This document shows, one piece after another, positions 16,820 to 35,971 of a stretch of DNA of 64,000 nt (position 1 is the first letter of the stretch; each line of letters begins with the position of its first letter). The notes beneath the pieces are model-generated. The model was not told where the DNA came from, made no database searches, and saw nothing but the letters and a program-made list of their open reading frames with translations. Where the stretch lies: positions 192,001 to 256,000 of the forward strand of contig CAWABA010000001.1 in the NCBI GenBank assembly GCA_963780185.1, read 5' to 3'. A program made the translations under genes and the position numbers. Origin of the DNA: Candidatus Bathyarchaeota archaeon (GTDB lineage: Archaea; Thermoproteota; Bathyarchaeia; Bathyarchaeales; Bathycorpusculaceae).

Positions 16820-16916
16820 TGCGGTTCTTCCTGCTTGTTGTTATAGATTGGACAAGTTGATAAATGCTATACCCCGCTTTCGGCGGCTGAAAGGCGGTTA
16901 ACCTGCAGTCTAAATC

Positions 16917-16932
16917 CGAAACGCTTATATTT
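16917..16932 (+). promoter_or_regulatory. BRE/TATA promoter of the aromatic leader and operon
   Basis: CGAAACGC-TTATATTT, ~40 nt upstream of the leader ATG. Confidence 0.6.
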
Positions 16933-16969
16933 TCTGGTTTATGACTCATTGAGCAGGTTCGAAGCTTCA

Positions 16970-17053
16970 ATGTCTAATCTCGCAAACAAAAAAGCAAACG
17001 TTGCATCATGGTTCCAGAGCTTCGACTACTTTTATTATAGTTATTTTCCTTAA
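16970..17053 (+). CDS. Putative aromatic-amino-acid leader peptide (27 aa)
   Basis: MSNLANKKANVASWFQSFDYFYYSYFP*. 9 of the last 14 codons are Trp/Phe/Tyr (1 W, 4 F, 4 Y). It lies directly upstream of the aromatic biosynthesis operon. Confidence 0.75.
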   Translation: MSNLANKKANVASWFQSFDYFYYSYFP

Positions 17054-17091
17054 GCCCAGAACTCAGAAAATTTTTTAGTGAAGTTCTGGGC
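17054..17091 (+). promoter_or_regulatory. Hairpin immediately after the leader stop (candidate attenuator)
   Basis: GCCCAGAACT (17054-63) pairs perfectly with AGTTCTGGGC (17082-91). A T6 tract lies in the loop (17071-76). Confidence 0.7.
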
Positions 17092-17109
17092 AAAGCACGG
17101 GTGTAGCAA

Positions 17110-18357
17110 ATGGAAAAAACTGGCTCTAAAAAAACGATTGTTGTTAAATTCGGCGGTTCTAGCCTAGCCGATCACGAGAGACTCTTAAAAGCGGTGGTTG
17201 CCGTGGTTAACGAAGCCAAGAAGGGTACGCGGGTCGCCGTGGTTGTGTCGGCTATGGGTAAAACTACTGATGTCCTTATGACGACTGCGAAGAACGCTTC
17301 TAACGGGAAACTCGACAAGAAAGACCTTGACGACATCCTCTCGATGGGCGAGCGGACCAGCATCAGAATCTTCTCCACGGCTCTGCGAACCAACGGAGCA
17401 GAATCCTGCTACTTTGACCCAATCGACAGCAACTGGCCAATAATCACCGACTCAGCATTCCAAAACGCCAACCCCATCCTCAAAGACTGCGAAAAAAATA
17501 TTCGCGAATGCGTGCTGCCAATCATGGAAAAAGGCGTCATCCCTGTTGTGGCGGGTTTTTTGGGTAAAACCAAAGACGGCAAAATCACGACTTTGGGAAG
17601 AGGCGGAAGCGACACCACCGCGTTCGTCTTAGCTGAGGCGCTTGGAGCCGACGAAATCGTGTTGGTAACCGACGCCGACGGCATAATGTCCGCTGACCCG
17701 AAGCTTCTTTCTAACGTTTTGCGCCTCAAAGAAGTCGACGTTAACACGTTGGTGGGGCTTGCCGATTCAGGAGCCAAATTCATCCACAGCAAAGCGTTAA
17801 AGTACAAGCCTAAAAACATCAACGTCCGCGTCATCAACCACGCACACGGCGACCTCTCCGAGGAAGGCACCTTAGTCACAGGCGGATTAGCCACGGAGCT
17901 TGACGCTGAAATCGCACATCCGTTTCCCGTCGCCGAAATCACCGTGATAGGCAACGGCATATCAGCTAACCCACAAATCATCCAGGAAATGGCGGAGAAA
18001 ACCAAGCGACACTCGCAGCTTTTAGGCATGTCAATGAACTCGAACTCCGCTATTCTTTACGTGTCTCAAGAAAAGAATTTAGACGGCCTCTTCAACGACG
18101 TTCACAACATAGTAAAGAGCAACAAGGAAACGATTGCGATGGCAGTCAAAAAAGACCTTGTTTTCATACAAACAAGCGGTGTCGGCTTAGAGGAAACCCA
18201 CGGCATCATCGGAAAAATCAGCGAAGACCTGCGGGTCAGCGGCATAAACATTTCAGGCATACTAACCATAACCTCTAGCATCCTGCTCTTTATGGATTGG
18301 AGTGAACGGGAAAAAGCCCTAAAACTGATTAAAAACTCTTTAAGGAGCGCTAAGTAA
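17110..18357 (+). CDS. lysC: Aspartate kinase
   Basis: VVKFGGSS, VVSAMG, TTLGRGGSDTTA, TDADGIMSADP, C-terminal ACT domains. Confidence 0.93.
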   Translation: MEKTGSKKTIVVKFGGSSLADHERLLKAVVAVVNEAKKGTRVAVVVSAMGKTTDVLMTTAKNASNGKLDKKDLDDILSMGERTSIRIFSTALRTNGAESCYFDPIDSNWPIITDSAFQNANPILKDCEKNIRECVLPIMEKGVIPVVAGFLGKTKDGKITTLGRGGSDTTAFVLAEALGADEIVLVTDADGIMSADPKLLSNVLRLKEVDVNTLVGLADSGAKFIHSKALKYKPKNINVRVINHAHGDLSEEGTLVTGGLATELDAEIAHPFPVAEITVIGNGISANPQIIQEMAEKTKRHSQLLGMSMNSNSAILYVSQEKNLDGLFNDVHNIVKSNKETIAMAVKKDLVFIQTSGVGLEETHGIIGKISEDLRVSGINISGILTITSSILLFMDWSEREKALKLIKNSLRSAK

Positions 18358-18366
18358 GGTGAAAAT

Positions 18367-19159
18367 ATGAATCAAGGAAAAACTCGAAGACTAAGAAGAA
18401 TCCTGCAGCAAGACAACCGAACAGTAATTGTCCCCATGGACCACGGCGTAACCGTCGGACCCATCCAAGGCTTAGCTAACATGCAGCAGACAATCAACAT
18501 GCTCATCAAAGGTGGAGTCGACGCAGTTCTCGTCCACAAAGGCATCGCAAGGCACACTGACGCTGGAAACGCAGGGTTAATCGTTATGCTTTCAGGCATG
18601 TCAAACCTTGAGCCCGAACGTCAACGGCAAAGTCCAAGTCTGCAGCGTCCAAGAAGCCATACGGCTTGGGGCAGACGCTGTTTCAGTGCATGTTAACATC
18701 GGAGCGCAGGATGAGGATAAAATGCTTCAAAACCTCGGCAGCGTAGCCGACGAATGTGACGTTTACGGTATGCCGCTTCTTGCAATGATGTATCCTCGGG
18801 GACCCAAAATACAGAATGAACACGCAGCCGACGTTGTCGCTCATGCCGCACGCATCGGCGCTGAACTTGGCGCAGACATCATCAAAGCAAACTTTACAGG
18901 AAACACAGAAACATTCAGAACCGTAGTGGAAAGCTGCCCCGTACCCGTTGTGATTGCGGGGGGACCAAAATGCAAAACCTCCGAAGAGGTCCTCCAAACT
19001 ACATACGACGCCATTTCAGCTGGAGCAGCGGGTCTCTCAATCGGACGCAACGTCTTCCAACATGAAAACCCAACCCTAATCGTCAAGGCGCTGTCAGCAA
19101 TCGTTCACGGCGGCGTTAGCGTGCAGGAAGCGCTCAAGATTCTCGGTGAAAAAACGTGA
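18367..19159 (+). CDS. 2-amino-3,7-dideoxy-D-threo-hept-6-ulosonate (ADH) synthase, class I aldolase (indel near 18608)
   Basis: [36 protein letters not shown]. Adjacent to DHQ synthase II. Confidence 0.88.
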
Positions 19160-20199
19160 AGGAACTTTGGGTAGAGATTGAGCAGGCGGCTTCACCGCAA
19201 GAAAAAGAAAACTTGCTTAGCTCCGCGCATGAAAACGCCGATGTGGTTCTCGAAGGAACCCAAGCCAGCACCCGCAGCGGCAAACTCGACATAGCCTTCC
19301 TCGCCGAGCTGTCCGAGAAAAAGATTTCTCAAGCTAAAAATGAAGGCAGAAAAACCGCCGTTAAAATCAGCATAAAAGGCAAGGAAGACGAGAACCAAGC
19401 TGCCAAAGCGGCTGAGCTGGGCGTGGATTACATTATTATTAACACGTTTGATTGGCGCGTTATCCCGCTGGAGAACTTGATTGCGAAGGCACACGGCGGC
19501 AAAAGCAAACTCATCGCCGAAGTTGCCACGGCGCAGGATGCCAAGGTGGTTCTTGAAGCCTTAGAGTTGGGAACAGACGGCGTTCTGCTTAAAACCTCAA
19601 ACCCCACTGAGCTTGCCAACACGGTTAAACTGGTTAAAGGGCAAATGCCAAAGGTCGCGTTGACAGTGGCGAAGGTTCTCTCAATCCAACCCATCGGCAC
19701 AGGCGCCAGAGTCTGCGTGGACACGGTTGATTTGATGGTTCCAGGCGAAGGAATGCTTGTCGGTTGCCAATCTGCAGGGTTCTTTTTGGTGGAAGCTGAA
19801 GTAAACGAGAACCCGTACGTGCAGTCTAGGCCTTTCCGAGTGAACGCTGGACCAGCCTCGCACTACACGTTAACGTCGCTTCAGAGCACCAGGTACCTGT
19901 CTGAACTTAAGGCTGGGGACGAAGTTTTAATCATCAACAGGGAAGGCAAAGTAAGAATAACCAACGTAGGTCGATCAAAAATCGAGTTCCGACCCCTCAT
20001 CCTAATTGAAGCGCAAGCGGACGACACAAAAATCAAAACGATATTGCAAAACGCGGAAACCATCCGCCTCGTCACGCCGAAAGCCTCTAAACCCGTCACG
20101 GAACTAAAAGTAAACGACGAGGTTTTGGTGCATTTGGCTGCGAAAGGGGGTAGACACTTCGGCGTTTCTGTGCCTGAAGAAACGGTGATTGAGAAGTGA
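19156..20199 (+). CDS. 3-dehydroquinate synthase II (archaeal)
   Basis: [43 protein letters not shown]. Confidence 0.93.
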
Positions 20200-20879
20200 C
20201 CATGAGAATCTGCGTTTCAATTCTTCCAAAAAACATCGCTGAAGCGTTAAACCTCATCAAAAAGGCAGAAGAATCCGAAGCAGACCTAATCGAAGTCAGG
20301 CTAGACCGCCTCGAAAAAAATAGTAACCTAGGCGAACTTGCCAAAGCCACAAAGCTTCCCTTAATCGCGACAAACAAACTTGCAAGAGAAAAAGGTTTTT
20401 TTGCTGGTTCGGAAGCCGAGCGGCAACAAATCCTCTTGAGTGCCGCTGAAAACGGGTTCGAATACGTTGACGTTGACCTATCAAACCCAAACAACAAAGA
20501 AATAATCGATAAAATCAAAAAGTTGGGTTCAAAACCAATAGTTTCCTACCACAATTCTGAAGACGCCTTAAACGTTTCCGAAATGGAAAAAATCCTCCAC
20601 CAAGAGATTTCGTGCGGTGCCAGCGTCTGCAAAATCATAGTCACAGCCAAAACAACCGAAGATAACTTGACGGCGCTCAATTTCGTGGCTTCTCATTCTG
20701 GTGAGGCGAAGCTTGTTTGTTTCTGCATGAGCGAGGCGGGCAAGGTTTCGCGGCTTCTTTCTCCGATGTTCGGCGCGTTCTTCACGTTTGCGTCGCTGGA
20801 GCAGGGCGACGAAACGGCGAAGGGGCAGATGTCGATTGGCGAAATGAAAGTTGCATACGACCTTTTGGGGGCAACGTGA
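20196..20879 (+). CDS. aroD: Type I 3-dehydroquinate dehydratase
   Basis: IEVRLD, VSYHN, CKI, FCM…GKVSRL, GQ. Confidence 0.9.
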   Translation: MTMRICVSILPKNIAEALNLIKKAEESEADLIEVRLDRLEKNSNLGELAKATKLPLIATNKLAREKGFFAGSEAERQQILLSAAENGFEYVDVDLSNPNNKEIIDKIKKLGSKPIVSYHNSEDALNVSEMEKILHQEISCGASVCKIIVTAKTTEDNLTALNFVASHSGEAKLVCFCMSEAGKVSRLLSPMFGAFFTFASLEQGDETAKGQMSIGEMKVAYDLLGAT

Positions 20880-21745
20880 TGGCGGTTTCAGGTAAAACCA
20901 AAGTTTTCGGAGTAATCGGCGACCCCATAGAGCACAGCCTAAGCCCAGTCATGCAGAACGCGGCGTTTGAAGCCTCCAAACTTGACTGCGCATTCTTGCC
21001 ATTTAAAGTCGAATCTTCACAGCTTGGCAAAGCCATAGACGGCATGCGAGCCTTAGATATCCAGGGATTAAACGTTACCATGCCCCACAAAACCGCAATC
21101 CTGAGTTTCCTAGACGAAGTTGACACGACCGCCAAGGTCCTAAAAGCAGTTAACACGGTGAAAAATGAGGACGGCAAACTGTTAGGCTTCAACACTGACG
21201 GCGCAGGCGCAATGTCGGCGCTAAGAGAAAACGGCGTGGATCTTAGAGGCAAAAAAGTGATGTTGCTAGGCGCAGGCGGAGCTGCTAGAGCCATAGGTTT
21301 CGCGGTTGCGGCGCAGGCGGATGAGCTTTCAATATTGAATCGGTCAATTCAACCAGCAGCCGAGTTAGCAGACATCGTACATCAAAAGTTCAACAGCAAA
21401 GTCTTTGCATATGCGCTTTCCCCATTGACAATTCGGGGAGTTCTAGTTGATGCTGACTTGCTAATTAACGCCACTTCAGTCGGGATGAAACCAAACGCCG
21501 CCAAAACCCTAGTGCCCTCTGAATGGCTCAAACCCGATTTGGCAGTAATGGACATCGTTTACGACCCGCTTGAAACCAAGCTGGCGAGAAACGCGAAGGC
21601 TGCAGGAGCCAAAGTGGTCAGCGGAGTTGAAATGCTGATTTATCAGGGGGCGGCGTCGTTTGAAATCTGGACTGGCAAAAAAGCGCCAGTTGAAGTTATG
21701 AGGAAGGCAGCGCTTAACCATTTGCAAAAGGTGCAGAAGAGATGA
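20879..21745 (+). CDS. aroE: Shikimate dehydrogenase
   Basis: GDPIEHSLSP, NVTMPHK, AVNT, NTDG, GAGGAA, MLIYQG. Confidence 0.95.
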   Translation: MAVSGKTKVFGVIGDPIEHSLSPVMQNAAFEASKLDCAFLPFKVESSQLGKAIDGMRALDIQGLNVTMPHKTAILSFLDEVDTTAKVLKAVNTVKNEDGKLLGFNTDGAGAMSALRENGVDLRGKKVMLLGAGGAARAIGFAVAAQADELSILNRSIQPAAELADIVHQKFNSKVFAYALSPLTIRGVLVDADLLINATSVGMKPNAAKTLVPSEWLKPDLAVMDIVYDPLETKLARNAKAAGAKVVSGVEMLIYQGAASFEIWTGKKAPVEVMRKAALNHLQKVQKR

Positions 21746-22611
21746 CTGGGCAAGCAACGGCTATAGCGCATGGAGCAGCAACGATTGTTAACGCTATGGC
21801 TCTTGGCAAAGGCGCCGCTTTCGGAGTTGACCTATACACGAAGGCTCAGGTAAAATTAACTGACGAACCCGAAGTCGTTAAGGCGGAGATTGCTTCTGAC
21901 CCCCAAGAAAGCACCGTTCTGATGGAGAAAACCGTCACGCGGGTTCTTAGCCATTTCAAAGTGGAAAAGAGGTTTGGCGCCAAAGTTAAAACTTGGTCCA
22001 CCATCCCCATCGCTAAAGGGCTCAAAAGCAGCAGTGCCGCGGCGAACGCGGTGGCGTTGGCGACCACGGCGGCGCTGGGAGAGATGGTGGATGATTTTAA
22101 AATCGTCAATTTAGGCGTAGACGCTGCTTTCGATGCGAAAGTCACGGTGACAGGAGCTTTTGACGATGCATGTGCTTCATATTTCGGCGGTGTAGTTGTC
22201 ACAGACAATTTGGAACGCAAAATCGTAATGCAAACGTCGTCACCTGATGATTTTGTGGTGCTTTTCCATGTTCCTCCGCAAAAAGCCTATTCAGGCGACT
22301 CGAACGTTGACAGGCTCAGAGTGGTGAAGCCGCTGGTTCAAGTTGCCTATGATGAAGCTTTAGCTGGCGATTTTTGGGGCGCTTTGACGCTTAACGGTTT
22401 AATTTACTCTTCCGCTTCGGGGTTCGACCCTTCGATTGCAATTGATGCGTTGGCGGCTGGAGCGGTTGGAGCTGGGCTCTGCGGCAAAGGACCCGCGGTC
22501 ACTGCAGTTGTGCCTGAAGATAAGGTTGATTCGGTGAGGGCGGCTTTTCAAAAATTCGGCGGTGAAGTCTTGCAAGCACGCCTTAACCATGAGAAAGCAA
22601 AGGTGATTTAG
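21742..22611 (+). CDS. aroK: Archaeal shikimate kinase (GHMP family)
   Basis: GAATIVNA, IPIAKGLKSSSAAANA, TGAFDDA. Confidence 0.93.
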   Translation: MTGQATAIAHGAATIVNAMALGKGAAFGVDLYTKAQVKLTDEPEVVKAEIASDPQESTVLMEKTVTRVLSHFKVEKRFGAKVKTWSTIPIAKGLKSSSAAANAVALATTAALGEMVDDFKIVNLGVDAAFDAKVTVTGAFDDACASYFGGVVVTDNLERKIVMQTSSPDDFVVLFHVPPQKAYSGDSNVDRLRVVKPLVQVAYDEALAGDFWGALTLNGLIYSSASGFDPSIAIDALAAGAVGAGLCGKGPAVTAVVPEDKVDSVRAAFQKFGGEVLQARLNHEKAKVI

Positions 22612-22613
22612 CT

Positions 22614-23918
22614 ATGGTGGATGTAATCGTTAAAAAATCTGAAAAACTAAGCGGCGAAGTATGCGCTCCCCCATCAAAATCGTATACTCAGCGAATGCTT
22701 ATTGCGGCGGCTCTTTCCAATGGATCTGGAAAGGTGTCAAATCCCCTTCTTTCTGAAGACACAGAAGCAGCCCTGCGTGCCATAACGGCGTTAGGCGCTG
22801 AAACAAGCTTTGAAGAAAACTGCTGGGTCGTCAAAGGCGCGGCTTCAATTCAAAATGCGAAATCACCAATCGACTGCGGAGAATCTGGAGCTACCCTCCG
22901 TTTCATGGTGCCCGTCGCAGCCCTCGCTAGTGACCCCTCTACGCTGTTTTTCCGCGGCTCTCTTGATCGCAGACCAATTGAACCCTTAATCAAAAGTCTC
23001 GACGATTTGGGCGCAAAGGTTCATCTCAAAAAGTTCGGCGACAAAGACGCCGTGGTTGTTGAAGGCGGCGGAATCCTCGGAGGACAAACCTTAATTCGCG
23101 GCGACGTCAGTTCACAGTTCATCTCGGGGCTGATGTTTGCGTGTCCGATGGCGAAAGTTGACACCGAAATTATTTTAACGTCGCCGCTTGAGTCAACTAA
23201 CTACGCAAAAATGACTTGGGATGTACTTTCAAGACACGGCGTCAAAGTAGACGTTTACGGCAACTTCGAACGCATTGTAATCCCAGCCAACCAAGCCTTC
23301 AAGCCGGCTGATAGCCGAGTACCAGGCGACTTCTCATCAGCCGCATTTCTCCTCGCAGCCGCAGCCATCACCAACTCCAAAGTGCAGGTAAACGACCTTG
23401 ACCGCGAGAGCATTCAAGGCGACAAAGCCATTCTGGGCATTCTAAAGCAGATGGGTGTAGCGGGCAAAGTTTGTGACAACAGCGTTGAAATAGACGGCGT
23501 TGGCGGTCCGCTTGTTCCGCTTAATCTTGATGCAAAAAACATTCCTGACCTTGTCCCAGTATGCGCAGCTCTGGCATGCTTCGCTGAAGGCACATCAAAA
23601 ATAACTGGCGCGCAAAGGCTTAGGCTCAAAGAGTCCGACAGGCTGAAATCCCTTCATACTGAATTCAAAAAGATGGGCGGCAAAATAGAATTTGACTCGG
23701 ACAGCCTAACCATAACAGGCACTTCTAATCTGCACGGCGCTACAGTTAACTCCCATAATGACCATCGAATCGCGATGGCTTGCGCGGTTGCAGCTCTATG
23801 CGCTGAGAAACAAACTGTAATTCAAAACGCTCAGTGCGTCAGAAAGTCTTATCCGCAGTTCTTCCTTCATCTCAAACAGTTAGGAGCGGAAATTGTTGGC
23901 GGGAAATTCGACAGGTAA
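22614..23918 (+). CDS. aroA: EPSP synthase
   Basis: PPSKSYTQR, GESGATLRF, SSQFISG, LRLKESDRL, DHRIAMA, KSYPQF. Confidence 0.96.
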   Translation: MVDVIVKKSEKLSGEVCAPPSKSYTQRMLIAAALSNGSGKVSNPLLSEDTEAALRAITALGAETSFEENCWVVKGAASIQNAKSPIDCGESGATLRFMVPVAALASDPSTLFFRGSLDRRPIEPLIKSLDDLGAKVHLKKFGDKDAVVVEGGGILGGQTLIRGDVSSQFISGLMFACPMAKVDTEIILTSPLESTNYAKMTWDVLSRHGVKVDVYGNFERIVIPANQAFKPADSRVPGDFSSAAFLLAAAAITNSKVQVNDLDRESIQGDKAILGILKQMGVAGKVCDNSVEIDGVGGPLVPLNLDAKNIPDLVPVCAALACFAEGTSKITGAQRLRLKESDRLKSLHTEFKKMGGKIEFDSDSLTITGTSNLHGATVNSHNDHRIAMACAVAALCAEKQTVIQNAQCVRKSYPQFFLHLKQLGAEIVGGKFDR

Positions 23919-25012
23919 AGAATTCGTATTCACCACTTTCGGCGAAAGCCACGGCAAAATCGTAGGCGTAGTTGTGGACGGTTGCCCAGCAGGCTTGCCC
24001 CTGTCTGAAGCAGACATCCAAGCCGAACTGGACAGACGCATCCCCGCAGACTCCAAAATCGTTTCTGCAAGAATCGAAAAAGACGTGCCCAAAATTTTGT
24101 CAGGCGTCTTCAACGGCTACACCACGGGTGCTCCCATAGCCGTGACGGTTGAGAACAGGGAGGTTGACTCGGCGGATTACGAAGCAATCAAGAATCTGCC
24201 AAGACCCGGACACGCAGACTACCCCGCAGGCGTCAAGTACGGCGGCTTTAACGATTATCGAGGCGGCGGACGGTTCAGCGGCAGGGTTACAGTGGCGATA
24301 ATAATGGCTGGCGCCATCGCCAAGAAGCTGCTAAGCCACTTCGACGTTGACGTTTTAGCTTACACAAGAGCCATAGGCAAAATCAGAAGCGACAAAAAAT
24401 TCAGCACCGAAGAAATCCAAAAGAACCGCTACGCGGCGGCGACTCGGTGCCCAGACCTGTCCTGCGCCGAAAAAATGGAGCAAGCCATCGTTGAAGCCCG
24501 AGAAGAAGGCGAAAGCGTCGGCGGCGTAGTTGAATGCATCGCCCTGAACGTTCCAGTAGGGGTTGGCGAGCCAATGTTTGATTCGCTTGACGCTGACTTA
24601 GCTAAGGCGCTGTTTAATGTTCCCGCTGTAAAAGCGGTTGAGTTCGGCTTAGGCTTCGCTGTTGCCGATTTAAAAGGCTCAGAAAGCAACGACGCCTACG
24701 TCATGCAAAACGGCAAAGTTACAAGCTTCAACAGATAACATGGGCGGAATCTTAGGCGGCATATCCAACGGCATGCCAATCCAAATTCGGGCAGCAATCA
24801 AACCAACGCCCTCCATCAGCCTGCCGCAGAAAACCGTTAACTTGTCCACTATGGAAAACGCTTCTGTAACCGTTAAGGGCAGGCATGACCCGTGTGTGGT
24901 TCCGAAAGCCGTTCCCGCAGTGGAAGCCGCCGTTGCAGTAACGTTAGCTGACCACATGATTCGTGCTGGTTTCATACCGAAAGTTTTGGAGAGAAAGAAA
25001 ATTGTTGGATGA
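23896..25012 (+). CDS. aroC: Chorismate synthase (indel near 24725-24740)
   Basis: TFGESHG, RPGHAD, GGGRFSGR. Second piece has GGILGGISNG and GRHDPCVVP. Confidence 0.93.
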
Positions 25013-25265
25013 ACTTGAACGCTACAGAAAACGGGTCGACGAAGTTGACGAATTGATTCTGAAGGCATTAACTGAAAGAGTCAAGATATGCATGGCTATT
25101 GGTTTGGTGAAGAAAAAACGGGGCATGGAAGTCAAGGATGCTTCCAGAGAAAAAGACGTTTACAAAAAAGTTAAAGAGAAATCTGCCGAATTATGCTTAG
25201 ATCCCCAGAAAGTTGAGGCAGTTTACCGCGAAATAGTTAATATGTGCAGTGCAGTTCAAGAATAA
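25005..25265 (+). CDS. Chorismate mutase (AroQ type II)
   Basis: LERYRKRVDEVDELILKALTER…IGLVKK…DASREK. Confidence 0.88.
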   Translation: MDELERYRKRVDEVDELILKALTERVKICMAIGLVKKKRGMEVKDASREKDVYKKVKEKSAELCLDPQKVEAVYREIVNMCSAVQE

Positions 25266-25295
25266 GAAATAATCTGAAAAGGAAAGTTTACGGCA

Positions 25296-26375
25296 ATGCT
25301 CTACGAAATAAACGAGAAAGCCATAAGACTCGAAAACCAAGGAAAGAAAATTATCCGCTTAAACCTAGGTGACCCTGACCTGGCGACGCCAACGGAGATT
25401 GTGGAAGCCGCGTACGCTGCTATGAAGGCGGGGAAAACAAAGTATTCTTCAGCTTATGGCGAGGAAAAACTAAGGCAGAAACTCGCGAAGATTCATGGAG
25501 TTAAAGCAGAAAACGTGGTTATTACGCCTGGTTCCAAATGGGGCGTCTTCGCGACGCTTTATTTGACGATGAAGGCTGGAGGCAACATCATCATACCCAC
25601 GCCTTACTGGACAGCTTACGATTTGATGGCTAAAAGCATCGGTGCCCAAACAAGGCTGCTTCGAACCGAAATGGAAGACGGCTGGAAAGTTGATTTGGGC
25701 AAGCTTGAAGCCATGATTGACAAAGACACAAAGATGATAATTCTCAATAACCCGAATAATCCAACCAGCAAAGTCATGGATGCAAAAACCTTAGACGGCA
25801 TAGTGGAAATCGCCAACAAAAAAGGCGTAACCATCCTCTCAGACGAAGTTTACGGTCCAATCAGCTTCGTAAAAACAAAAAGCATCCTTGAATACGACGG
25901 CAACAACACTCACATCCTGTCAAACGGCTTCTCCAAAATGTTCACTATGACGGGCTGGCGAATCGGCTACATCATAGCCAACAAGCCGCTAATCGACAAC
26001 ATCACAAAACTAAACCAAATCACCATAAACAACGTGCCAGTCTTCATACAGGAAGCAGCTTTGAAAGGGCTTGAAATGCAGAAAAGCCTGACCAACAGCA
26101 TCGAGAAAGAATATCAAGAACGAGCAAAAATGGCGTGTGCAACCCTCACGAAAGCGGGGCTTTCCTTCACCGAGCCTGAAGCACCCTTCTACGTGTTCCC
26201 TAAACGTAAAGGCTTAGACTCCGAAAAATTCACTTTAGACCTGCTTGACAAAGGCGTCGCAGTTGCTCCAGGAACATCTTTCGGCGACTACAGAGAACAC
26301 TTCCGCATCTCCCTAACTGCCCCCCGAAACGAAATAAAGGTGGGGTTGGAAAAAATCAGCGAGGCGCTCGGATGA
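25296..26375 (+). CDS. Class I/II PLP aminotransferase (probable aromatic aminotransferase)
   Basis: LNLGDPD, NNPNNPT, SDEVY, FSKMFTMTGWRIG. Operon context. Confidence 0.9.
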   Translation: MLYEINEKAIRLENQGKKIIRLNLGDPDLATPTEIVEAAYAAMKAGKTKYSSAYGEEKLRQKLAKIHGVKAENVVITPGSKWGVFATLYLTMKAGGNIIIPTPYWTAYDLMAKSIGAQTRLLRTEMEDGWKVDLGKLEAMIDKDTKMIILNNPNNPTSKVMDAKTLDGIVEIANKKGVTILSDEVYGPISFVKTKSILEYDGNNTHILSNGFSKMFTMTGWRIGYIIANKPLIDNITKLNQITINNVPVFIQEAALKGLEMQKSLTNSIEKEYQERAKMACATLTKAGLSFTEPEAPFYVFPKRKGLDSEKFTLDLLDKGVAVAPGTSFGDYREHFRISLTAPRNEIKVGLEKISEALG

Positions 26376-27247: not shown

Positions 27248-27392
27248 ACGACTGTTGCCGCAATCGCCTGTTTCAAATAAAGGACAAATATCAAACGGTT
27301 ATTGAGAGAATAGCAGCAATAAAAGCTAAATGCTAGCAAAGCTGTAACAAAAGTGAACGGGGAAGAAAACGGTAACAGGAGAGTAATAGAAG

Positions 27393-28007: not shown

Positions 28008-28185
28008 AGCCCAAATGTCGGCTTACTTTTTCGATCCAGCGCGCTCAAGCAGCAAACGCTCATCTGTGAAGCCGAACTTGGTATATGCTTTCAACCCCTG
28101 TTTGCTGCAGTTGCAAACGTTGTTCTGTTTCAAATAAAAGCTTATTCAAGGTCAACTCTGCAGAAAGAGCCAAAGAAAAAGGTGT

Positions 28186-28997
28186 TCAGATGACTCTGGG
28201 GTAGGATCCCAGGATTTTCACGAACGTCGCGTATTTTTCCAGGGCTTCCAAGGCTTCTGCGCAGCGTTTTTCGGTTCGGTGCCCCTCAAAGTCGAGGTAA
28301 AAGTTGTATTGCCACGCAGTGGTTTTGGTGGGTCTGGATTCGATTTTGGTTAGGTTGATGTTTCTTGATGCGAACTCGCTGAGGGCGTGGTAGAGGGTTC
28401 CGGGGCGTGTTTGGCTGAGAATATGATTGAGGTTTTGTCGTCGCCTGTGGGGGCTGCATCTTCGTGGCCGAGGACAAGAAACCGAGTGTAGTTTGATGGG
28501 TTATCGGCGATGTCTCGGGCAAGAATCTTCATGCTGTAGAGGTCTGCGGCTTTTTCGCTTGCGATGGCGGCAGCGTTTGTGAGGTTTTTTTCTTTAATGA
28601 TTTTTACGGCTCCAGCGGTATCGTAAGCGGGGATGATTTCCCACTTGTGCCTTTCAAGGTATTTGCGGCATTGCGCTAACGCTTGGGGATGCGAGTAAAC
28701 TGTTTCGATGTCCTCGATTTTGGTGTCTGGGTTGCCGATTAGGACATGGGCAAGTTTTACTGCGACTTCACCGCAGACTTTGAGGTCATAAGTGAGGAAT
28801 AGGTCGTAGTTTTGGTTGACGCTGCCCTCGATAGAGTTCTCAATCGGAACCACGCCATGGGGAACAACACCTGTTTTTACGGATTCGAAGACATCGCGGA
28901 AATCTTTGCAGGGAACTGGCTCTACTTTGCTGCCGAAAAACTTGTAGACAGCCATTTCACTGTAAGCGCCAGTTTCACCCTGATATGCTACTTTCAC
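28186..28997 (-). CDS. pheA: Prephenate dehydratase with ACT domain (indels in the 3' part)
   Basis: YQGETGAYSE, PIENSIEGSV, SHPQALAQC, NYTRF. The downstream frame ends …KILGSYPRVI* at 28186. Confidence 0.92.
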
Positions 28998-30505
28998 TGT
29001 TTGTTTCCCCGATTGTGACTCTTAAGCAAAAGCTTGTTTATACCGTTTATCATCGCTTCGACGCTTGCCATCACGATGTCTTCTCTTGCCGCCCTCGCCG
29101 AAACCAAATTGCCTTTCTCATCCTCCACTTTAATGATGACTTCTGCAACAGCGTTTGAGCCGCCCGTAATGGCTTCAAGACGGTACTCTCGGAGACGGAT
29201 GTTTTCTTGGCTGCTGATTAGCTTCTGAATTGCTTTTAGAACCGCGTCAACTGGACCTACACCTGTTTCTGCGGCAATGTATTCTTTCCCATCCAGAATC
29301 AGCCGCACTGAAGCCGTTGGGATAACTTTGATGCCGGTGACCACTGCCATGTCGCATAAGGAAACGATTTTCTGTTCCCGACTTCGCCTATAACCGCAGA
29401 GGTCAACGCCAGCAAGTCCGCGTCCGTGACCATTTTGCCTTTGTCGCCAAGTTCCTTGACGCGTTGGACGATTTCTTTGAGTTGCTCCTCCGTTGGGTGA
29501 ATGCCGACTTCTTCCAGCTCCGCTTTGATGCCGCGTGTCCCCGCCAGTTTCCCAGCTACAAGTTTTCTTGTGCGGCCAACCAACGCGGGGTCTATCGGTT
29601 CAAAGGTTAGGGGTTTCTCGGTTACTCCGCGGGTGTGGATGCCTGATTCATGTGCGAAAGCGTTTTCGCCGACCAGCGCCTTGTTAGCCTGCACGGCGAT
29701 GCCTGTTAACGTTGAAACCATGCGGGATGTGCTGTAGAGTAGTCGGCTGTTTACGCCTGTCTTGTACTTGTAAATTACCTGCAGCGCCATAACCACTTCT
29801 TCCAGCGAAGCGTTACCTGCCCGCTCGCCCAACCCGTTGACGGCAACATGCACTTGCACAGCGCCCGCTTCCACGGCAGCCAACGAGTTTGCGACTGCCA
29901 ACCCGAAGTCGTCGTGGCAGTGAATGCTAATCGGCGTCTTGACGACGGATTTGATTTCTTCAACGAATTTGATGGTTGATTTCGGAATCATGATGCCTAC
30001 GGTGTCAGGCAAGTTGAGGCTGTCCATTCCTGCTTTTTCTGCAGCTTGGCAAACCTGTTTTAGAAAAGGCATTTCGGAACGTGTGGCATCCATGGGTGAA
30101 AACTCGCATTTTACCCCATGCGCCTTCACGTACTCAATCGACTCAACCGCTGAAGCCAACACTTGCTCAGGTGTCAAGTTGACGGCGTACTTCATCTGCA
30201 CTGGCAGAGGTCGGGATGAAAACGTGGATTAAGTCAACGTCGCAGTCCAGCGCCGCGTCAATGTCGCCTTTTGTCGCTCGGGAAAGGGCGCAGATTTCAG
30301 AATTCAAGCCCAGCTTGGCAATTTCTTTAACGACTTTTTTTTCGCCGTCAGAGGAACTTGGAAAACCCGCTTCGATAACGTCAACGCCCAGTTTGCCTAG
30401 TTGGCGTGCGATCTCAATTTTGTCTTCAGGGGTTAAAGAAACCCCGGGGGTTTGTTCGCCGTCTCTTAGGGTGGTGTCTAAAATCCGTATGTATTTTCCC
30501 GTCAT
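28994..30505 (-). CDS. leuA: 2-isopropylmalate/citramalate synthase family (three ORF pieces)
   Basis: [31 protein letters not shown]-terminal regulatory domain GVGPVDA. LeuA versus CimA cannot be resolved here. Confidence 0.85.
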
Positions 30506-30509
30506 TTTT

Positions 30510-31548
30510 TCAGCCAGTTTTCACTGTTAAGGCTGCAGCAATGGCTTCCGCCATTCCCACGGTCGTTGTGTTGCCGCCGCAGTCTGGAACAGTTTGACCG
30601 TTACGTAACGCGTAAATTACGCCGTTCTCGATTGCTGCGCCTGCCTGCATGCATTTTTTGTCGTTGTATTTTTCGCCAAGCCACTCCAGCATCATTTTCG
30701 CGCTAAGAACCATCGAAATCGGGTTTGCTGTGTGTTTTCCTTCCCTGTTTGGCGCTGAACCATGGATGGGTTCGAAGAGTGCGAAGTTGTCGCCTAAGTT
30801 TGCGCCTGGAGCCATGCCTAAGCCGCCGATTAGTTGGGCTGCTTCGTCTGAGAGGATGTCGCCGAACATGTTGCATGTGCAGAACACATCGAATATCTGC
30901 GGCTCCTTGATGAGCCGCATCGACGCTGCGTCAACGTACAGTTCGTTGAAGGCGATGTCTGGGTACTGCTTGGCTGTTTCGCGGCATACGCTGGCGAATA
31001 ACCCGTCGGTTACCCGCATAACGTTTGCTTTGTGGATTGCGGTGACTTTCTTTTTGCCGTTGCGTAGGCGCGCCATTTCGAAGGCTTTTTTGGCTATGCG
31101 TTCGCAGGCTTTGCGTGTTATGACCCTGATGCAGATGGTTGTGTTCGGGTCTAAGTGTGAATTCTAAGCCTTTGTAAACGTCCTCGGTGTTTTCCCTGAC
31201 CCACAGCATGTCAATGTCTGGTCTAGCAACTGGAACCGATGGGTAAGACTTGATCGGGCGCAGGTTCGCGTATAAATCGAACATCAACCTGAGTTTAACT
31301 ATGACGTCTGCTGCTGTTTCGCCGACTGGACCTTTCAGGCACGCGTGAGACGCCTTGATTATTTCTACGCTGTCCGCAGGAAGCGCCACGCCTCTTTTCG
31401 CTAAGGTGCCGTCGCCTGCTTCAGCCTCAATCATCTTCAGTTTTATGCCGAATTTTTTCTGCGCTGCCTCTAGAACTTTCAGGGTTGCTTCTGTTAGTTC
31501 TGGACCGATTCCGTCTCCTGGAATCAACGAAATTTTGTATTCAGTCAT
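30510..31548 (-). CDS. leuB: 3-isopropylmalate dehydrogenase family (indel near 31150)
   Basis: [43 protein letters not shown]. Confidence 0.88.
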
Positions 31549-32050
31549 TTCTTGTTCATTCTCCTACGCAAATTCTCGATTAATCCGCCGTCAACTAATA
31601 TCTCTAGGATAAATGGTGGCAGCTTCTCTACTTGAAACTTTTTGCCGTTGGAAACGTTTTCTATCTTGCCAGCTTCGAAATCCACCGCTAACTCGTCGCC
31701 TGTTTCAACCGCCGCCGATATGCCTTTGCATTCGATTACGGGCAAGCCGATGTTGATGGCGTTTCGGAAGAAGATCCGCGCGAAAGATTCAGCTAACACG
31801 CATTTTACGCCAGCGTACTTTAAGTGCTAGCGGTGCTTGTTCTCGGCTTGAGCCGCATCCGAAGTTTTTGCCGCCTACCACGATTACGCCTTTCTTTGGC
31901 TTTCTCGGGAAACTCTGGGTCTAAGCCTTCCAGTGCGTGTTTTGCCAGCTCATGAGGGTCAACCAGCATCAGGTATTGTCCAGGCAGGATGACGTCTGTG
32001 TCGATGTTGTTTCCGAATTTTATGGCTGGTCCTTTGATTTTCATGTTCAT
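31545..32050 (-). CDS. leuD: 3-isopropylmalate dehydratase small subunit (indel near 31890)
   Basis: [30 protein letters not shown]. Confidence 0.9.
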
Positions 32051-33315
32051 GCTTTTGCCTCCAGTTTTCTTGGGTCAGTGATTTTTCCTGTTACTGCCGA
32101 AGCGGCTACCGTTGCTGGGGAAGCTAGGAATACGCTGGCTTGGGTGCTGCCCATTCTTCCGATGAAGTTGCGGTTTGAGGTGCTGACGCAAGTTTCGTTT
32201 GCCGCCAGTAAGCCGATGTGTCCGCCAAGGCATGGTCCGCATGCTGAACCGCAAACTATTGCGCCTGCGTCAATGAAGATATCCATCAAGCCTTCGTCTA
32301 AAGCCTGCTTGTAAACTTCTTGCGACGCCGGAATCACAAGTGCCCGAACGCCGTCTTTTACGCGTCTGCCCTTCAGGACTTGAGCTGCTAAACGTAAATC
32401 TTCGATTCTGCCGTTGGTGCATGACCCGATGAAAGCCTGCTCAATCGGAACGTCGCCGACTTCTGAAACAGGTTTCACGTTGTCGACTGATGATGGGCAA
32501 GCAATCTGCGGCTCCAACTTTGAAACGTCAAAATCCACTGTCCGTTGGTAAACCGCGTCTTTGTCGCTTTTCAAGTCTTCAAAGTTTGGCAGAGTTTTGA
32601 CTCTTCCTTCTAGGAATTTGCGGGTTGTTTCGTCGGGTTCGATGATGCCGTTTTTGGCGCCCATCTCCACCGCCATGTTGCACAGCGTCATTCTTCCCGC
32701 TATGCTCATGTCTTTTATTGTTGGACCTGTGAATTCGGCGCTTTCGTAGGTGGCGCCGTCAACGCTTACTTTTCCGATTATTGATAAGATCAGGTCTTTC
32801 GCGGTGACGTACTTTGGGAATTTCCCTGTCACGTTTATTTTGACGGCTTCAGGGATTTTGAGCCAAATCTTTCCAGTGGCTAAGACTGCCGCTGCTTCGG
32901 TTGAGCCTATTCCTGTTGCGAACGCTCCGAATGCTCCGTAAGTGCATGTGTGCGAGTCGGCGCCGACGATTACTGTTCCTGGAACCACGTGTCCCTTTTC
33001 AGGCATGACTTGATGGCAGATTCCGCCTTTGCCCACGTCGTAAATGCGTAGGTTTTGGTCTTTGGCGAATTGACGCATGGTTTTATGCAGTTCCGCGGCT
33101 TTCACGGATTCAGCTGGCACCTGATGGTCCAGTATAACCACTGCTTTTTTGTTGTCCCAAACTTTCTGTACGCCTATTTTTTTGAAGGCTTCAACGGCTA
33201 ATGGCCCAGTTAAATCGTGCACCATTACCATGTCAACGTTTGCGTCGACTATTTCTCCTGGATGCACGGCTTTTTTTCCTGAGGCTTTAGCCAAGATTTT
33301 TTCTGTTATGTTCAT
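32047..33315 (-). CDS. leuC: 3-isopropylmalate dehydratase large subunit
   Basis: HD, DH, GICHQ, DSHTCT, GSCTNGR, CGPCLG, TSNRNF. Confidence 0.93.
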   Translation of the reverse strand: MNITEKILAKASGKKAVHPGEIVDANVDMVMVHDLTGPLAVEAFKKIGVQKVWDNKKAVVILDHQVPAESVKAAELHKTMRQFAKDQNLRIYDVGKGGICHQVMPEKGHVVPGTVIVGADSHTCTYGAFGAFATGIGSTEAAAVLATGKIWLKIPEAVKINVTGKFPKYVTAKDLILSIIGKVSVDGATYESAEFTGPTIKDMSIAGRMTLCNMAVEMGAKNGIIEPDETTRKFLEGRVKTLPNFEDLKSDKDAVYQRTVDFDVSKLEPQIACPSSVDNVKPVSEVGDVPIEQAFIGSCTNGRIEDLRLAAQVLKGRRVKDGVRALVIPASQEVYKQALDEGLMDIFIDAGAIVCGSACGPCLGGHIGLLAANETCVSTSNRNFIGRMGSTQASVFLASPATVAASAVTGKITDPRKLEAKA

Positions 33316-33362
33316 TTTTGATTCTCTTCTTCTAACGATTGATTTTTTTGTTTCTGATAACT

Positions 33363-33406
33363 ATGACAAGTTTGTCATTCTAAGAAAACTTGAAATTAAG
33401 GGTTTC
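33363..33406 (-). promoter_or_regulatory. Internal leuC promoter with a perfect 7-2-7 palindrome
   Basis: Minus strand GGAAACCCTTAATTT (BRE/TATA), followed by ATGACAA-AC-TTGTCAT (33363-33378) at about the expected TSS. Confidence 0.55.
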
Positions 33407-33422
33407 CGTTCACGGCGACGAT

Positions 33423-33935
33423 TTATTCGTCTATTCTTACCGATTTTGCCCCTCTTGCCAACGCTGTTATGCCTGTTCTTGCGAGTTCAATGACGCCTGT
33501 TGCCTTCATCAAGTTTAGGAACGCGTCGAGTTTGTCAGGTGTACCCGTGATTTCTATGGTTAGGCTGTCAGTGGAGACGTCGATGATTCGTCCGCGGAAG
33601 ACTTCTACGCAGTTTATGATGTCTGAGCGGTCTTTGGCGCTGGGAGAGTTAACTTTTATCAGTGCTAGTTCACGCATTACGTAGGTTCCGGGTTCCAGCT
33701 CTTCGACTTTGAGCACATCGATGAGTTTTGCAACTTGCTGGATGACTTGAATTATTGTTCTTTCATCCTCTTTGACTGTGATGGTCATACGCGCGATGTC
33801 TTTTCGCTCGCTTGGGCCAACCGTGATGCTTTCGATGTTAAAGTTTCTACGTCGGAACAGGTTTGAAACTGCGAAGAGGACACCTGGCTTGTTTTCGACA
33901 AGCACCGAAATTATTTTGGTTCTTCCAGGTTCCAT
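33423..33935 (-). CDS. ilvN: Acetolactate synthase small (regulatory) subunit
   Basis: SVLVENKPGVL, RRNFNIESITV, RELALIKV, ELARTG. Confidence 0.95.
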   Translation of the reverse strand: MEPGRTKIISVLVENKPGVLFAVSNLFRRRNFNIESITVGPSERKDIARMTITVKEDERTIIQVIQQVAKLIDVLKVEELEPGTYVMRELALIKVNSPSAKDRSDIINCVEVFRGRIIDVSTDSLTIEITGTPDKLDAFLNLMKATGVIELARTGITALARGAKSVRIDE

Positions 33936-35647
33936 CAGTAGTCACCTCTCTGTTGTGGCAAACCGCAGCCCGGCGGGACGAAGGGTACAACGTCGTGCTC
34001 GGAGCCTATTGGCACATCGATTACCGTGGTAACATTACTGGTAAGCGCTGTCTTAACTGCTTTGTGGAATTCCTCGATTGACGTCGCCCGTAGACCCTGC
34101 GCTCCGTAAGCCTCTGCCAACTTGACAAAGTCAGGTGTTTTGCCTAGGTCAATTGCCATGTAGCGGCGTTTGTAGAGCATTCGTTGCCACTGCGCCACCA
34201 TGCCCAGCACTGAATTGTTAAGCACTATGACGATGACGGGGATCTTTTCAGCTACGGAACACGCGAGTTCTTGCTCGGTCATTAGGAAACTGCCGTCGCC
34301 AGCTATGTCCACGACTGCTCTGTCTGGGCAAGCCACTTTTGCTCCTATAGCCGCTGGGAAACCAAAGCCCATGGTTCCAAGTCCGCCTGAACTGATGAAA
34401 GTTCTCGGCTTCAACGCTTGGAAGTATAGGGCTGACCACATTTGGTTTTGACCAACTTCGGTAGTGACGATGGTGTCCGCAGGTAACAGGTTTCTCAGCT
34501 CCATCAGCAGGGCTTTAGGCACTAAGTCTCTGGGTCTGTCTTTTAGCATTGGGCTTAACTGCTCTTTGGCTTCTCTAACACGCTTAGACCACAAGCTAAC
34601 TTTCATCCTTGGCAGCTTCTTTGTTGTAGCAGCCAGCAGATGCTTCAGCGACACTTTAGCGTCTCCAACGATTGGAACGTCAACTTCAATGTTCTTGCCG
34701 ATTTCCGCCGCATCAATGTCTATGTGAATCTTTTTGGCGTTGGGCGCAAAAGTGTCTAAATTGGCGGTTGCACGGTCAGAAAACCTTGTTCCAATGGCTA
34801 GCAGCACGTCGGCTTCGCCAATCAACCTGTTTGCAGCTGGGTTTCCATGCATCCCTATGCATCCAATTGACAGGGGGTGACATTCAGGAAAAGCGCCCTT
34901 ACCCATGAAAGTTGTCGCAACTGGCGCCATCAACAAATCTGACATCTGCATCAATTCGTCGGAGGCATTGGAAGAAATGACTCCGCCGCCAGCCAGAATC
35001 ATCGGGTATTCAGCCTCCGCCAGTAAATCCGCTGCCGCGCTGATTTTAGACAGGTCTGGCTCTAAGGCTGGTTTGTAGCCTCGGGCTTCGATTTTCTCTG
35101 TAATTCCCAGGTTTACTTCGGCGATGTCTGACTGCACGTTTTTAGGTATATCAATCAGGACTGGTCCAGGTCTGCCTGAGGACGCTATGTAGAATGCGGC
35201 GTTAACCATCGGTTGGATATCCGCGATGCTTCGCGGCTGATAATTATGCTTAGTGATGGGTGTGGTGATGCCGATGATGTCTGCTTCTTGGAAGGCGTCT
35301 CTGCCAATCATGTACGAAGAGTTGACGCCGCTAGAAGGAACCTGCCCTGTTATGGCTATCATCGGCGACGAATCCATAAACGCATTCGCGATTCCCGTAA
35401 CCAAGTTTGTCGCTCCAGGTCCCGACGTTGCCATGCAGACTCCTACTCGTCCGCTGGCTCTTGCGTAGCCTTCGGCGGCGTGTGCTGCTCCTTGCTCGTG
35501 TCTAGCGAGTATGTGCCTGATTTTCTCGTTGCCGCAGAGGGCATCGTACACTGGCAGTATGGCTCCGCCTAAGATGCCGAATATGACGTCGACGTTTTGT
35601 TTTTCAAGGGAATCTAAGAGTACTTTGGCTCCGCTCATTTTAGTCAT
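33935..35647 (-). CDS. ilvB: Acetolactate synthase large subunit
   Basis: RHEQGA, TSGPGATN, FQEAD, GRPGPV, GTMGFG, GDGSF…NNSVLGMV. Confidence 0.96.
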   Translation of the reverse strand: MTKMSGAKVLLDSLEKQNVDVIFGILGGAILPVYDALCGNEKIRHILARHEQGAAHAAEGYARASGRVGVCMATSGPGATNLVTGIANAFMDSSPMIAITGQVPSSGVNSSYMIGRDAFQEADIIGITTPITKHNYQPRSIADIQPMVNAAFYIASSGRPGPVLIDIPKNVQSDIAEVNLGITEKIEARGYKPALEPDLSKISAAADLLAEAEYPMILAGGGVISSNASDELMQMSDLLMAPVATTFMGKGAFPECHPLSIGCIGMHGNPAANRLIGEADVLLAIGTRFSDRATANLDTFAPNAKKIHIDIDAAEIGKNIEVDVPIVGDAKVSLKHLLAATTKKLPRMKVSLWSKRVREAKEQLSPMLKDRPRDLVPKALLMELRNLLPADTIVTTEVGQNQMWSALYFQALKPRTFISSGGLGTMGFGFPAAIGAKVACPDRAVVDIAGDGSFLMTEQELACSVAEKIPVIVIVLNNSVLGMVAQWQRMLYKRRYMAIDLGKTPDFVKLAEAYGAQGLRATSIEEFHKAVKTALTSNVTTVIDVPIGSEHDVVPFVPPGCGLPQQRGDY

Positions 35648-35743
35648 TTCATCGTTTCTCCTTTGTGAAAACTATACTCTCGTCTAAAGAAAGAAATGTT
35701 TGAAAATATTTGAGTGGCTGTTTCAGAGGGTTTCCTGGGTGAA

Positions 35744-35800
35744 TCAAAGAATAAGTACCCGACGATCCCAGCGATTGAGGTGACGATCCCTCATTTTCAT
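35744..35800 (-). CDS. Putative branched-chain amino acid leader peptide (18 aa, or 16 aa from the second ATG)
   Basis: MKMRDRHLNRWDRRVLIL*, ending GTA CTT ATT CTT TGA (Val-Leu-Ile-Leu), 96 nt upstream of ilvB. TATA-like TTTATTTTTAAG lies ~25-30 nt upstream, consistent with leaderless initiation. Confidence 0.62.
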   Translation of the reverse strand: MKMRDRHLNRWDRRVLIL

Positions 35801-35971
35801 GCCTCGTTAAATATTCCTTAAAAATAAACTGCTGAATCAATAAAAAGCTTGTGGTTAACGTTTAGTTGGATTCAATTTTTTGCGGGAAAAACCTTTTGTT
35901 TTTGGAGGTTTTTTCCTATTTTTTGGAAAGCCCTTATTACACAGAACAACTTTTTTCTTAGCTTGACCATT

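Follow-up and report, generated by a model that had tools for sequence, protein, structure and literature searches.

Leader-peptide attenuation is a textbook form of regulation by coupled transcription and translation, known from bacteria, and to our knowledge the sensing of charged tRNA by leader peptides is regarded as a bacterial invention. Do Archaea use it as well? The question is raised by a 64,000-nucleotide stretch of a Candidatus Bathyarchaeota genome (assembly GCA_963780185.1, contig CAWABA010000001.1), hereafter the window, which covers positions 192001–256000 of contig C1 in the 2.75-Mb, 13-contig genome G000. Here a short upstream open reading frame (uORF) rich in Phe and Tyr codons precedes an operon for aromatic amino acid synthesis, the aro operon. 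An earlier note on this DNA had proposed a lineage-wide system with two members, the aro and ilv-leu operons, each opening with a uORF whose final codons match the products of the pathway. From comparison of the locus with its relatives, we consider it likely that the frame at 16970–17053 is a translated regulatory leader peptide, which would inform the aro operon, beginning at 17110, of how much charged Phe- and Tyr-tRNA is available. The frame, its Phe/Tyr composition, its place before an aro-linked kinase and a hairpin that touches its stop codon are conserved across a phylum-wide archaeal set.

A Phe/Tyr-rich frame is conserved upstream of the aro operon

The aro leader open reading frame (ORF) lies on the + strand at 16970..17053 (ATG at 16970, TAA at 17051–17053) and encodes MSNLANKKANVASWFQSFDYFYYSYFP followed by the stop. 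It comprises 27 codons with a Phe/Tyr-rich C-terminal half (one Trp, four Phe and four Tyr among the last 14 residues) and ends 56 nt before the ATG (17110) of the first operon gene, an amino-acid kinase of the aspartate-kinase family (17110–18357, +). Comparable frames were sought across G000 by taking all intergenic uORFs with an ATG start, a length of 10–45 residues and a same-strand ORF of at least 100 residues starting no more than 300 nt downstream; 23 residue groups were scored, with a greedy ORF proxy, rather than a gene caller, defining the gene set. Among the resulting 1842 uORFs the aro leader was one of three comparably rich in Phe, Trp and Tyr. Since composition in one genome is not decisive, the case for an enrichment beyond chance rests on conservation.

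We therefore used the aro-linked kinase as an anchor and read the region upstream of it in relatives. An equivalent frame was present in all 27 kinase-orthologue loci of a first draw, from 24 species of the same genus and three other genera (the frame of L004, which is the same locus as L156, was read by hand from the alignment and later confirmed). These frames start with ATG, span 24–37 codons (41 in L027), end 46–77 nt before the kinase and carry a Phe/Tyr-rich C-terminus; in the genus alignment the ATG is invariant. The frame was likewise found in 19/19 further loci of families f5 and f7, two of which are cut by contig ends (L119 among them) and one of which (L135) was read by hand, and in 39/39 named Bathyarchaeota records having upstream sequence. 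Pooling and removal of duplicates left 79 loci from families f1, f5 and f7. Phe, Trp and Tyr together make up 5–10 of the last 14 residues in this set, with at least six in 78 of the 79 loci. The ilvB and hisG upstream regions of the same genomes, taken as controls, gave 2–6, reaching six in one region of 60. The claim that both operons open with a cognate uORF is thus borne out for aro (78/79 against 1/60 controls); for ilv-leu it fails, as the tail of the frame there is variable and not enriched.

The 1104 tail codons of the aro leaders comprise 315 for Tyr, 293 for Phe and 15 for Trp, and both synonymous codons are used for each of the two abundant residues (TTT 161 and TTC 132; TAT 214 and TAC 101). 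The leader therefore concerns Phe and Tyr, not Trp, and the Trp component drops out of the W/F/Y sensing that had been suggested. A leader confined to Phe and Tyr fits the operon, because this contains genes for chorismate mutase, prephenate dehydrogenase (tyrA) and an aminotransferase, with the trp genes located elsewhere. The peptide sequence drifts between families, as seen in SFDYYFYYYHFP, MFYSFSYFFYN, PFFGSFGYFGY, FFDFFYYYFYFE, NPYYYYYYYCFF, MFGYFYFYYFGP and FFYSFWSYRYFTLA, while composition, frame and position stay. In 94 of 109 loci the last aromatic codon stands one or two codons before the stop. One close relative (L176) has lost the leader stop, so that its peptide ends ...YFPQAQN and the frame enters the hairpin arm, through either an indel error or natural variation.

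The leader reaches other families and classes

Kinase orthologues were found in 137 of 301 sampled genomes of class Bathyarchaeia. To define breadth we required at least six Phe, Trp or Tyr residues among the last 14. Within the class, 39 upstream regions were taken from 19 additional family/genus groups (16 families), and 21 of them reached this threshold, with peptides such as FFDFFYYYFYFE, NPYYYYYYYCFF, TRFFGYFYFYYFK and FHYPYFYFFYCYYFFEG. Of 20 upstream regions from the other classes of the phylum, 10 did so, with MFGYFYFYYFGP, TFDSYSFSYFFFYSF, TTFFYSFWSYRYFTLA and TFTTFSYYYRW among others. In each of five genomes tested from these other classes, DHQS-II lies 2–3 kb downstream of the kinase on the same strand. 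Families f35 and f17 display little aromatic enrichment upstream of the kinase. These data support the view that the aro uORF acts in the manner of a cognate leader peptide throughout the lineage, reaching class Bathyarchaeia and other classes of the phylum. For aro the proposed lineage-wide system is therefore wider than had been suggested; its ilv partner does not stand, the cognate tail being neither conserved nor enriched.

A hairpin begins at the leader stop codon

Directly after the stop codon in the window, a hairpin occupies 17054–17091 (+), in which GCCCAGAAC (17054–17062) pairs with GTTCTGGGC (17083–17091) to form a 9-bp stem; its loop consists of an A-run and T6 (17071–17076). The hairpin is single-copy in the genome, and the whole segment from stop to kinase folds with a minimum free energy of -20.2 kcal/mol (z -4.1). 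A Shine-Dalgarno (SD)-like GGGTG (17099–17103), read from sequence and conservation and spanning 17099–17112 (+) together with the kinase ATG, follows 7 nt beyond the stem and so lies outside the hairpin. Upstream of the leader, a BRE/TATA-like GAAACGCTTATATTTT at 16918–16933 (+) is the putative archaeal promoter of the leader transcript. It is near-invariant in a 24-locus alignment of the genus (one of the 24 has no sequence there), and this is its sole exact copy in the genome. Among sequencing runs that cover 16900–19900, seven DNA runs with small shares turned up and no RNA run. A genus-conserved 5' element, GGTTCGAAGCT (16956–16966, +), is complementary to the uORF codons S-F-D, and in the unconstrained minimum-free-energy fold it pairs with these codons, AGCTTCGAC at 17018–17026 (+). 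Pairing that involves the sensing codons, and a U-rich tract close by, had both been described in the earlier note and were both found, the former as GGTTCGAAGCT with AGCTTCGAC and the latter as the T6 in the hairpin loop. In this form GGTTCGAAGCT was not seen in other families. A search of 16000–37000 on both strands against Rfam leader families (Phe, Trp, His, Thr, Leu and others) gave no match at E up to 1.

The position of the hairpin is conserved among relatives. Its stem begins between -3 and +1 nt from the stop in 76 of the 79 loci, with a median z of -3.1 against dinucleotide shuffles and a z of -2 or below in 67. Of the 31 above-threshold loci from other families and classes, 29 have a stem start no more than 3 nt from the stop. 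Stem sequences are specific to families and include GCCCAG..CTGGGC with varied inner helices, AAGCTTCGAAACC/GGTTTCGAAGCTT, AGCCAAGAC../..GTCTAGGCT and GGGGACC/GGTCCTC; in f5 a purine-rich arm faces a pyrimidine-rich one. Changes within the genus are single, and all give G-U pairs. RNAalifold applied to 39 aro leader sequences kept just five outer pairs, with no compensatory change. The inner pairs drop out on alignment, since the inner helices are not the same from family to family. With no compensatory change, the case for the structure is one of position and family-specific stems, not of formal covariation.

What follows the stem varies. In 25 loci of other families and classes for which the kinase start was set automatically, the kinase SD lies within the 3' arm in nine (f46, f51, f45 and others), 0–5 nt after it in eight and 6–12 nt after it in eight. 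In six loci (L210, L233, L217, L025, L130 and L133) the stem is followed by T5–T6, resembling an intrinsic terminator. The aro element does not always include a U-run.

Proposed mechanism and its alternatives

We propose that the hairpin is inhibitory, holding the SD in some lineages and preceding a T-run in others, and that it would be opened by a ribosome only at the very end of the uORF, because the stem starts at the stop codon. When Phe or Tyr is scarce, ribosomes would dwell on the last aromatic codons, one or two codons before the stop. Such a dwelling ribosome would keep the base of the stem open by direct occlusion, and transcription or translation would proceed into the operon. Under good supply the ribosome would terminate and depart, the hairpin would re-form and expression would drop. 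We favour an inhibitory hairpin opened from the uORF side because of the SD placement, the T5–T6 tracts after the stem and the terminal aromatic codons. The output platform, either termination or occlusion of the ribosome-binding site, is probably not the same in all lineages. Sequence alone does not give the sign of the response; sign and mechanism are what we infer. For the genus of the window a variant would also fit, in which the stem would keep a U-binding termination factor away from the U-run until a ribosome, on terminating, exposed it. This variant fails where the U-run follows the stem.

Several observations weigh against a sensing leader of this kind. Below the breadth threshold stand 18 of the 39 further loci in the class and 10 of the 20 in other classes. 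Before the same kinase, families f26 and f34 conserve another peptide, which is poor in aromatic residues (MGDxLFGDGVY and GGH[I/L]YG..YWL, respectively). Here sequence rather than composition is kept (f26 in L203–L206 and L236; f34 in L208, L209, L218, L237 and L238, also in the form MGGHLYWH). Loci of one genus are not independent, and our counts overstate the number of independent observations. The hairpin z is weak in the 31 loci of other families and classes, with a median of -1.4 and -2 or below in nine. No terminator-like site was found in 16850–17150, where the T6 lies in the hairpin loop; it is transcribed ahead of the hairpin's 3' arm, unlike in a terminator of the bacterial type. 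We found neither a conserved antiterminator nor a second, alternative fold that is conserved, the conserved structure amounting to one hairpin plus a genus-specific 5' stem, and folding of 14 loci with the ribosome footprint masked gave no consistent shift in accessibility of the kinase ribosome-binding site. Stalls on earlier aromatic codons (up to 10 before the stop) would also fall short of the stem, and a ribosome that merely terminates would open it too, so that regulation could run opposite to the need of a biosynthetic operon.

This last point is also the strength of a different account, in which translation of the uORF is linked to that of the kinase and serves as a constitutive enhancer or coupling device. 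The terminating ribosome would open the hairpin and no amino acid would be sensed. The stop adjoins the stem in 76/79 and 29/31 loci, the SD lies within or beside the 3' arm, and a terminating ribosome would melt the stem at any amino acid supply. What such coupling leaves unexplained is why Phe and Tyr should be abundant specifically before the aromatic operon, across lineages with otherwise unrelated peptides, and why the aromatic run should end one or two codons before the stop in 94/109 loci; we regard it as unlikely. The open frame might instead be a by-product, if what is conserved were an RNA element of UUY/UAY triplets to which a regulatory protein binds, much as TRAP binds its triplet repeats. 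A run of such triplets does stand directly ahead of the hairpin, and these genomes do possess nucleotide-level leader elements with incidental ORFs, namely those of ilv and his. Yet the frame is open from the conserved ATG to the stop at the stem in 78/79 loci (L176 having lost its stop), lengths in the genus alignment differ by multiples of three, and the aromatic residues keep to one frame with the intervening codons free to encode S, G, R, D, C or H. There is moreover no nucleotide conservation between families, and a protein-bound triplet element is in our judgement very unlikely.

It is more improbable still that the peptide itself is the functional product, whether as an aromatic-rich effector acting on the pathway enzymes or through TnaC-like ribosome arrest that senses free Phe or Tyr. 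The motifs kept in f26 and f34, where sequence outlasts composition, would suit such a role, as would the retention of SFDY..YFP within the genus. Across families, however, composition and position are kept and sequence is not, which sensing at the level of codons fits better.

The ilv and his leaders belong to a different kind of element

The second uORF of the earlier claim lies on the - strand at 35744..35800 (read 35800–35744) and encodes MKMRDRHLNRWDRRVLIL plus stop, with a conserved core from the second ATG (35794). It has 18 codons, ends in VLIL and stops 96 nt before ilvB. The uORF is present in 23/23 ilvB loci of the genus. Its invariant part is ATGAGGGATCGTCACCTCAATAGCTGGGATCGTCGGGTAC (MRDRHLNSWDRRV), after which the three codons following the invariant V read LIL, LVL, QLL, QLF, QIS, QIL, HFY, LFC, LFL, FIL or PRN. 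Reading the alignment, we found substitutions to be as frequent at codon positions 1 and 2 as at position 3. The last 14 residues hold four to eight Ile, Leu or Val in 30 ilvB regions, no more than in the control regions (two to nine for aro, three to seven for his).

The uORF is embedded in a conserved leader element at 35715..35812 (-), made up of AGAGG, ATGAGGGATCGTCACCTC, GGGATCGTCGGGTAC, CCCAGG and CCCTCTGA and having no Rfam match. Each of the full ilv motifs (a 16-mer and a 15-mer) has one exact copy in the genome. In other genera the modules are reordered, as GGGAT, 4–5 nt and GGGTAC, together with a GAGGRATCGTYYCCTC hairpin. RNAalifold on 23 ilv leader sequences returned 15 pairs with no compensatory change, the SD-like AGAGG before the ATG pairing with CCTCT after the ORF. 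One compensatory change, to CTGGA/TCCAG in L034 and L035, was read from the alignment in the CTGGG/CCCAG pairing. A terminator scan flagged 35776–35793 (+), the reverse complement of the first ilv hairpin, where TGAGG..CCTCA is followed by TTTT; this is probably incidental. Divergent to the ilv leader, and sharing an intergenic region of about 200 nt with it, is a small CooT-like gene (CO dehydrogenase accessory; 35849–36157, +).

The hisG leader of the same genome (G000:C7, about 169504, -; loci L085–L112) opens with ATGAGGGAT as the ilv leader does. It reads ATGATGAGGGATTGCGTTCAT and then GATTGCGTTCAT again, as a direct repeat 19 nt apart, and is near-invariant in 25/25 loci of the genus and recognisable in 3/5 loci of other genera. 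The opening (A/G)TGAGGGAT is thus common to the ilv and his operons, and the hisG leader that carries it may represent a second class of leader element. ATGAGGGAT has four intergenic copies in the genome: one in the ilv leader, one in the his leader, a third situated 60 nt ahead of an Lrp/AsnC-type gene, and a fourth with a 161-residue opposite-strand ORF nearby and its next same-strand ORF 782 nt downstream, neither of which matched Pfam. A looser [AGT]TGAGGG gave 61 intergenic hits, many of them about 20 nt from a gene start and read as ordinary SD sequences. Taken as peptides, both leaders would start M-R-D/G and have, at about codon 6, a residue that is cognate (L or V in ilv, H in his), which we regard as a lead, not a result. 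Other readings of the two leaders found no support in the sequence, namely a box C/D or k-turn motif, a specifier like that of a T-box, and an alternative frame (GIVTSIAGIV), which a stop just ahead of it closes.

Could the ilv frame nonetheless be a branched-chain leader peptide with its VLIL tail as the sensor? VLIL or VLVL occurs in 9/23 genus loci, with an I-to-V change in L036; by hand count I, L or V account for 40 of the 69 residues in the three variable positions, and the ilv leaders of other genera, again read by hand, have L or V as their sixth codon. Such a sensor is difficult to reconcile with the HFY, PRN and QIS tails, with an I+L+V content no higher than in the aro and his controls, or with an invariant part that is the non-cognate, nucleotide-conserved MRDRHLNSWDRRV. 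The modules are rearranged in other genera, and the his leader has the same opening motif but a single His codon. We regard a VLIL sensor as rather unlikely. As far as can be read from the sequences, the ilv uORF is part of a nucleotide-conserved leader element whose opening motif recurs in the his leader, and not a leader peptide of the aro type.

Other amino acid operons

The genome scan yielded no further cognate pair among the 19 downstream genes (Pfam) of the top-scoring uORFs in G000. A His-rich uORF stands before a seryl-tRNA synthetase gene, and the genes after the Thr-rich uORFs are unrelated. Another uORF rich in Tyr and Phe, MVYDSVSVTLNFYYSYY, was noted at G000:C6:55117–55170 (+), 11 nt before an OsmC-like gene. 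Upstream of the trp genes (cutA-trpEGDCBA), hisG and hom of this genome there is no uORF rich in Trp, His or Thr, respectively. The expectation of cognate uORFs at other amino acid operons was thus disappointed for trp, his and hom, the operons covered by this check, which left out arg, met and cys. Since the ilv frame is not cognate, trp, his and hom have no cognate uORF and the top-scoring uORFs give no cognate pair, we arrive at one clear system and not a general one.

The third amino acid operon of the window is of the lysW-lysX-argC-argB-argD type (47581 onward) and has a divergent Lrp/AsnC gene (47425–46922, -). Its 155-nt spacer was read by eye, with no ORF scan run there, and holds no uORF; both the missing uORF and the divergent Lrp are as previously stated.

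Gene clusters of the window

The aro operon (17110..27247, +) was assigned from Pfam matches. The kinase is followed by a DeoC-type, ADH-synthase-type aldolase (two ORFs), DHQS-II, aroD, aroE, a GHMP shikimate kinase, aroA (EPSP synthase), aroC (chorismate synthase), chorismate mutase, an aminotransferase and tyrA. Relatives of the kinase at 85–98% identity are from Candidatus Bathyarchaeota and Bathyarchaeia metagenome-assembled genomes. We take this aspartate-kinase-family gene to serve aromatic synthesis by the aspartate semialdehyde/DKFP route, not Lys, Thr or Met synthesis.

The ilv-leu operon (28350..35647, -), likewise assigned from Pfam matches, runs ilvB (35647–33935), ilvN, leuC, leuD, leuB (split), leuA (split) and pheA; the leuD ORF (31545–31799) has no Pfam match and is named by position. 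The prephenate dehydratase gene pheA (28350–28997, -) is thus the last gene of the ilv-leu operon and lies outside the aro operon, so that Phe synthesis is divided over two divergently regulated clusters. Some genes appear as overlapping ORFs (the DeoC-type aldolase in two, leuA in three, leuB in two), and chorismate synthase stops short of the end of its profile. These sites (18367–19159, 23893–25012, 28994–30505 and 30510–31548) suggest frameshifts in the biosynthetic genes, from assembly errors or decay.

Discussion

The closest known counterparts of the aro leader are the ribosome-mediated attenuators, a class comprising the Escherichia coli pheA attenuator with its leader peptide PheL together with trpL, hisL and ilvL. 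As in the PheL type, a short ORF stands before a biosynthetic operon, its run of cognate codons reaches to one or two codons before the stop, and a hairpin follows. The aro leader differs in its archaeal host, promoter and polymerase, in the lack of a conserved terminator/antiterminator pair among the structures found, in having no U-run after the stem in this window, in being rich in both Phe and Tyr and in matching no Rfam family. In the E. coli pyrBI attenuator, the ribosome translating the leader directly occludes the terminator hairpin. As we propose for the aro leader, pyrBI has a single hairpin whose folding is blocked when a ribosome translates as far as the hairpin, and no antiterminator besides. 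It differs in that it senses UTP through polymerase pausing and not amino acids through codon runs.

Translational attenuation offers a further comparison, with the ermC/cat type and with the polycysteine uORFs of mycobacteria (bioRxiv 10.1101/834739): a ribosome stalled on the leader would open a structure that limits the next gene. The aro loci of f46, f51 and f45 have the SD inside the hairpin, as translational attenuators do. The leader of this window departs from ermC and cat in that its SD lies 7 nt outside the stem and its proposed stall signal is a shortage of charged tRNA, not a drug.

Archaeal termination at oligo-U tracts and by aCPSF1/FttA, as well as its enhancement by hairpins, is covered in a 2026 review of termination signals (PMC13675443). 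The T6 located 18–23 nt after the stop here, and the T4–T6 after the stem elsewhere, could be read in this way, with the reservation that the U-run is not constant in the element. Neither attenuation nor leader peptides are mentioned in the text of that review, and a term search of PMC12288461 gave nothing of archaeal relevance beyond Spt5. No archaeal leader-peptide attenuator was found in full-text searches of the accessible literature, a body from which subscription journals are mostly absent, so that an earlier report is possible.

Of the proposed pair, the aro half makes a strong candidate, spread across the phylum, for an archaeal leader peptide that senses amino acids. We lean, by a small margin of belief, towards a broader picture in which charged-tRNA sensing by leader peptides would be ancient and widespread in Archaea. 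A Phe/Tyr leader would control the aspartate kinase-aro operon, and its output would have been exchanged between termination (at a U-run, possibly with aCPSF1/FttA) and occlusion of the ribosome-binding site. The second leader class, (A/G)UGAGGGAU of ilv-leu and his, would then be a further new cis-regulator that senses by something other than codon runs.

For annotation, the gain would be an aspartate-kinase-family gene that heads its operon and would be tied to aromatic synthesis rather than to Lys, Thr or Met. If the proposal is true, the leader would provide a conserved and easily mutated element with which to ask how the archaeal ribosome talks to the polymerase, to termination factors and to a downstream ribosome-binding site. 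Nature has supplied variants with the SD in the stem, with the U-run after the stem and, as here, with the U-run in the loop, and their comparison could separate these routes.

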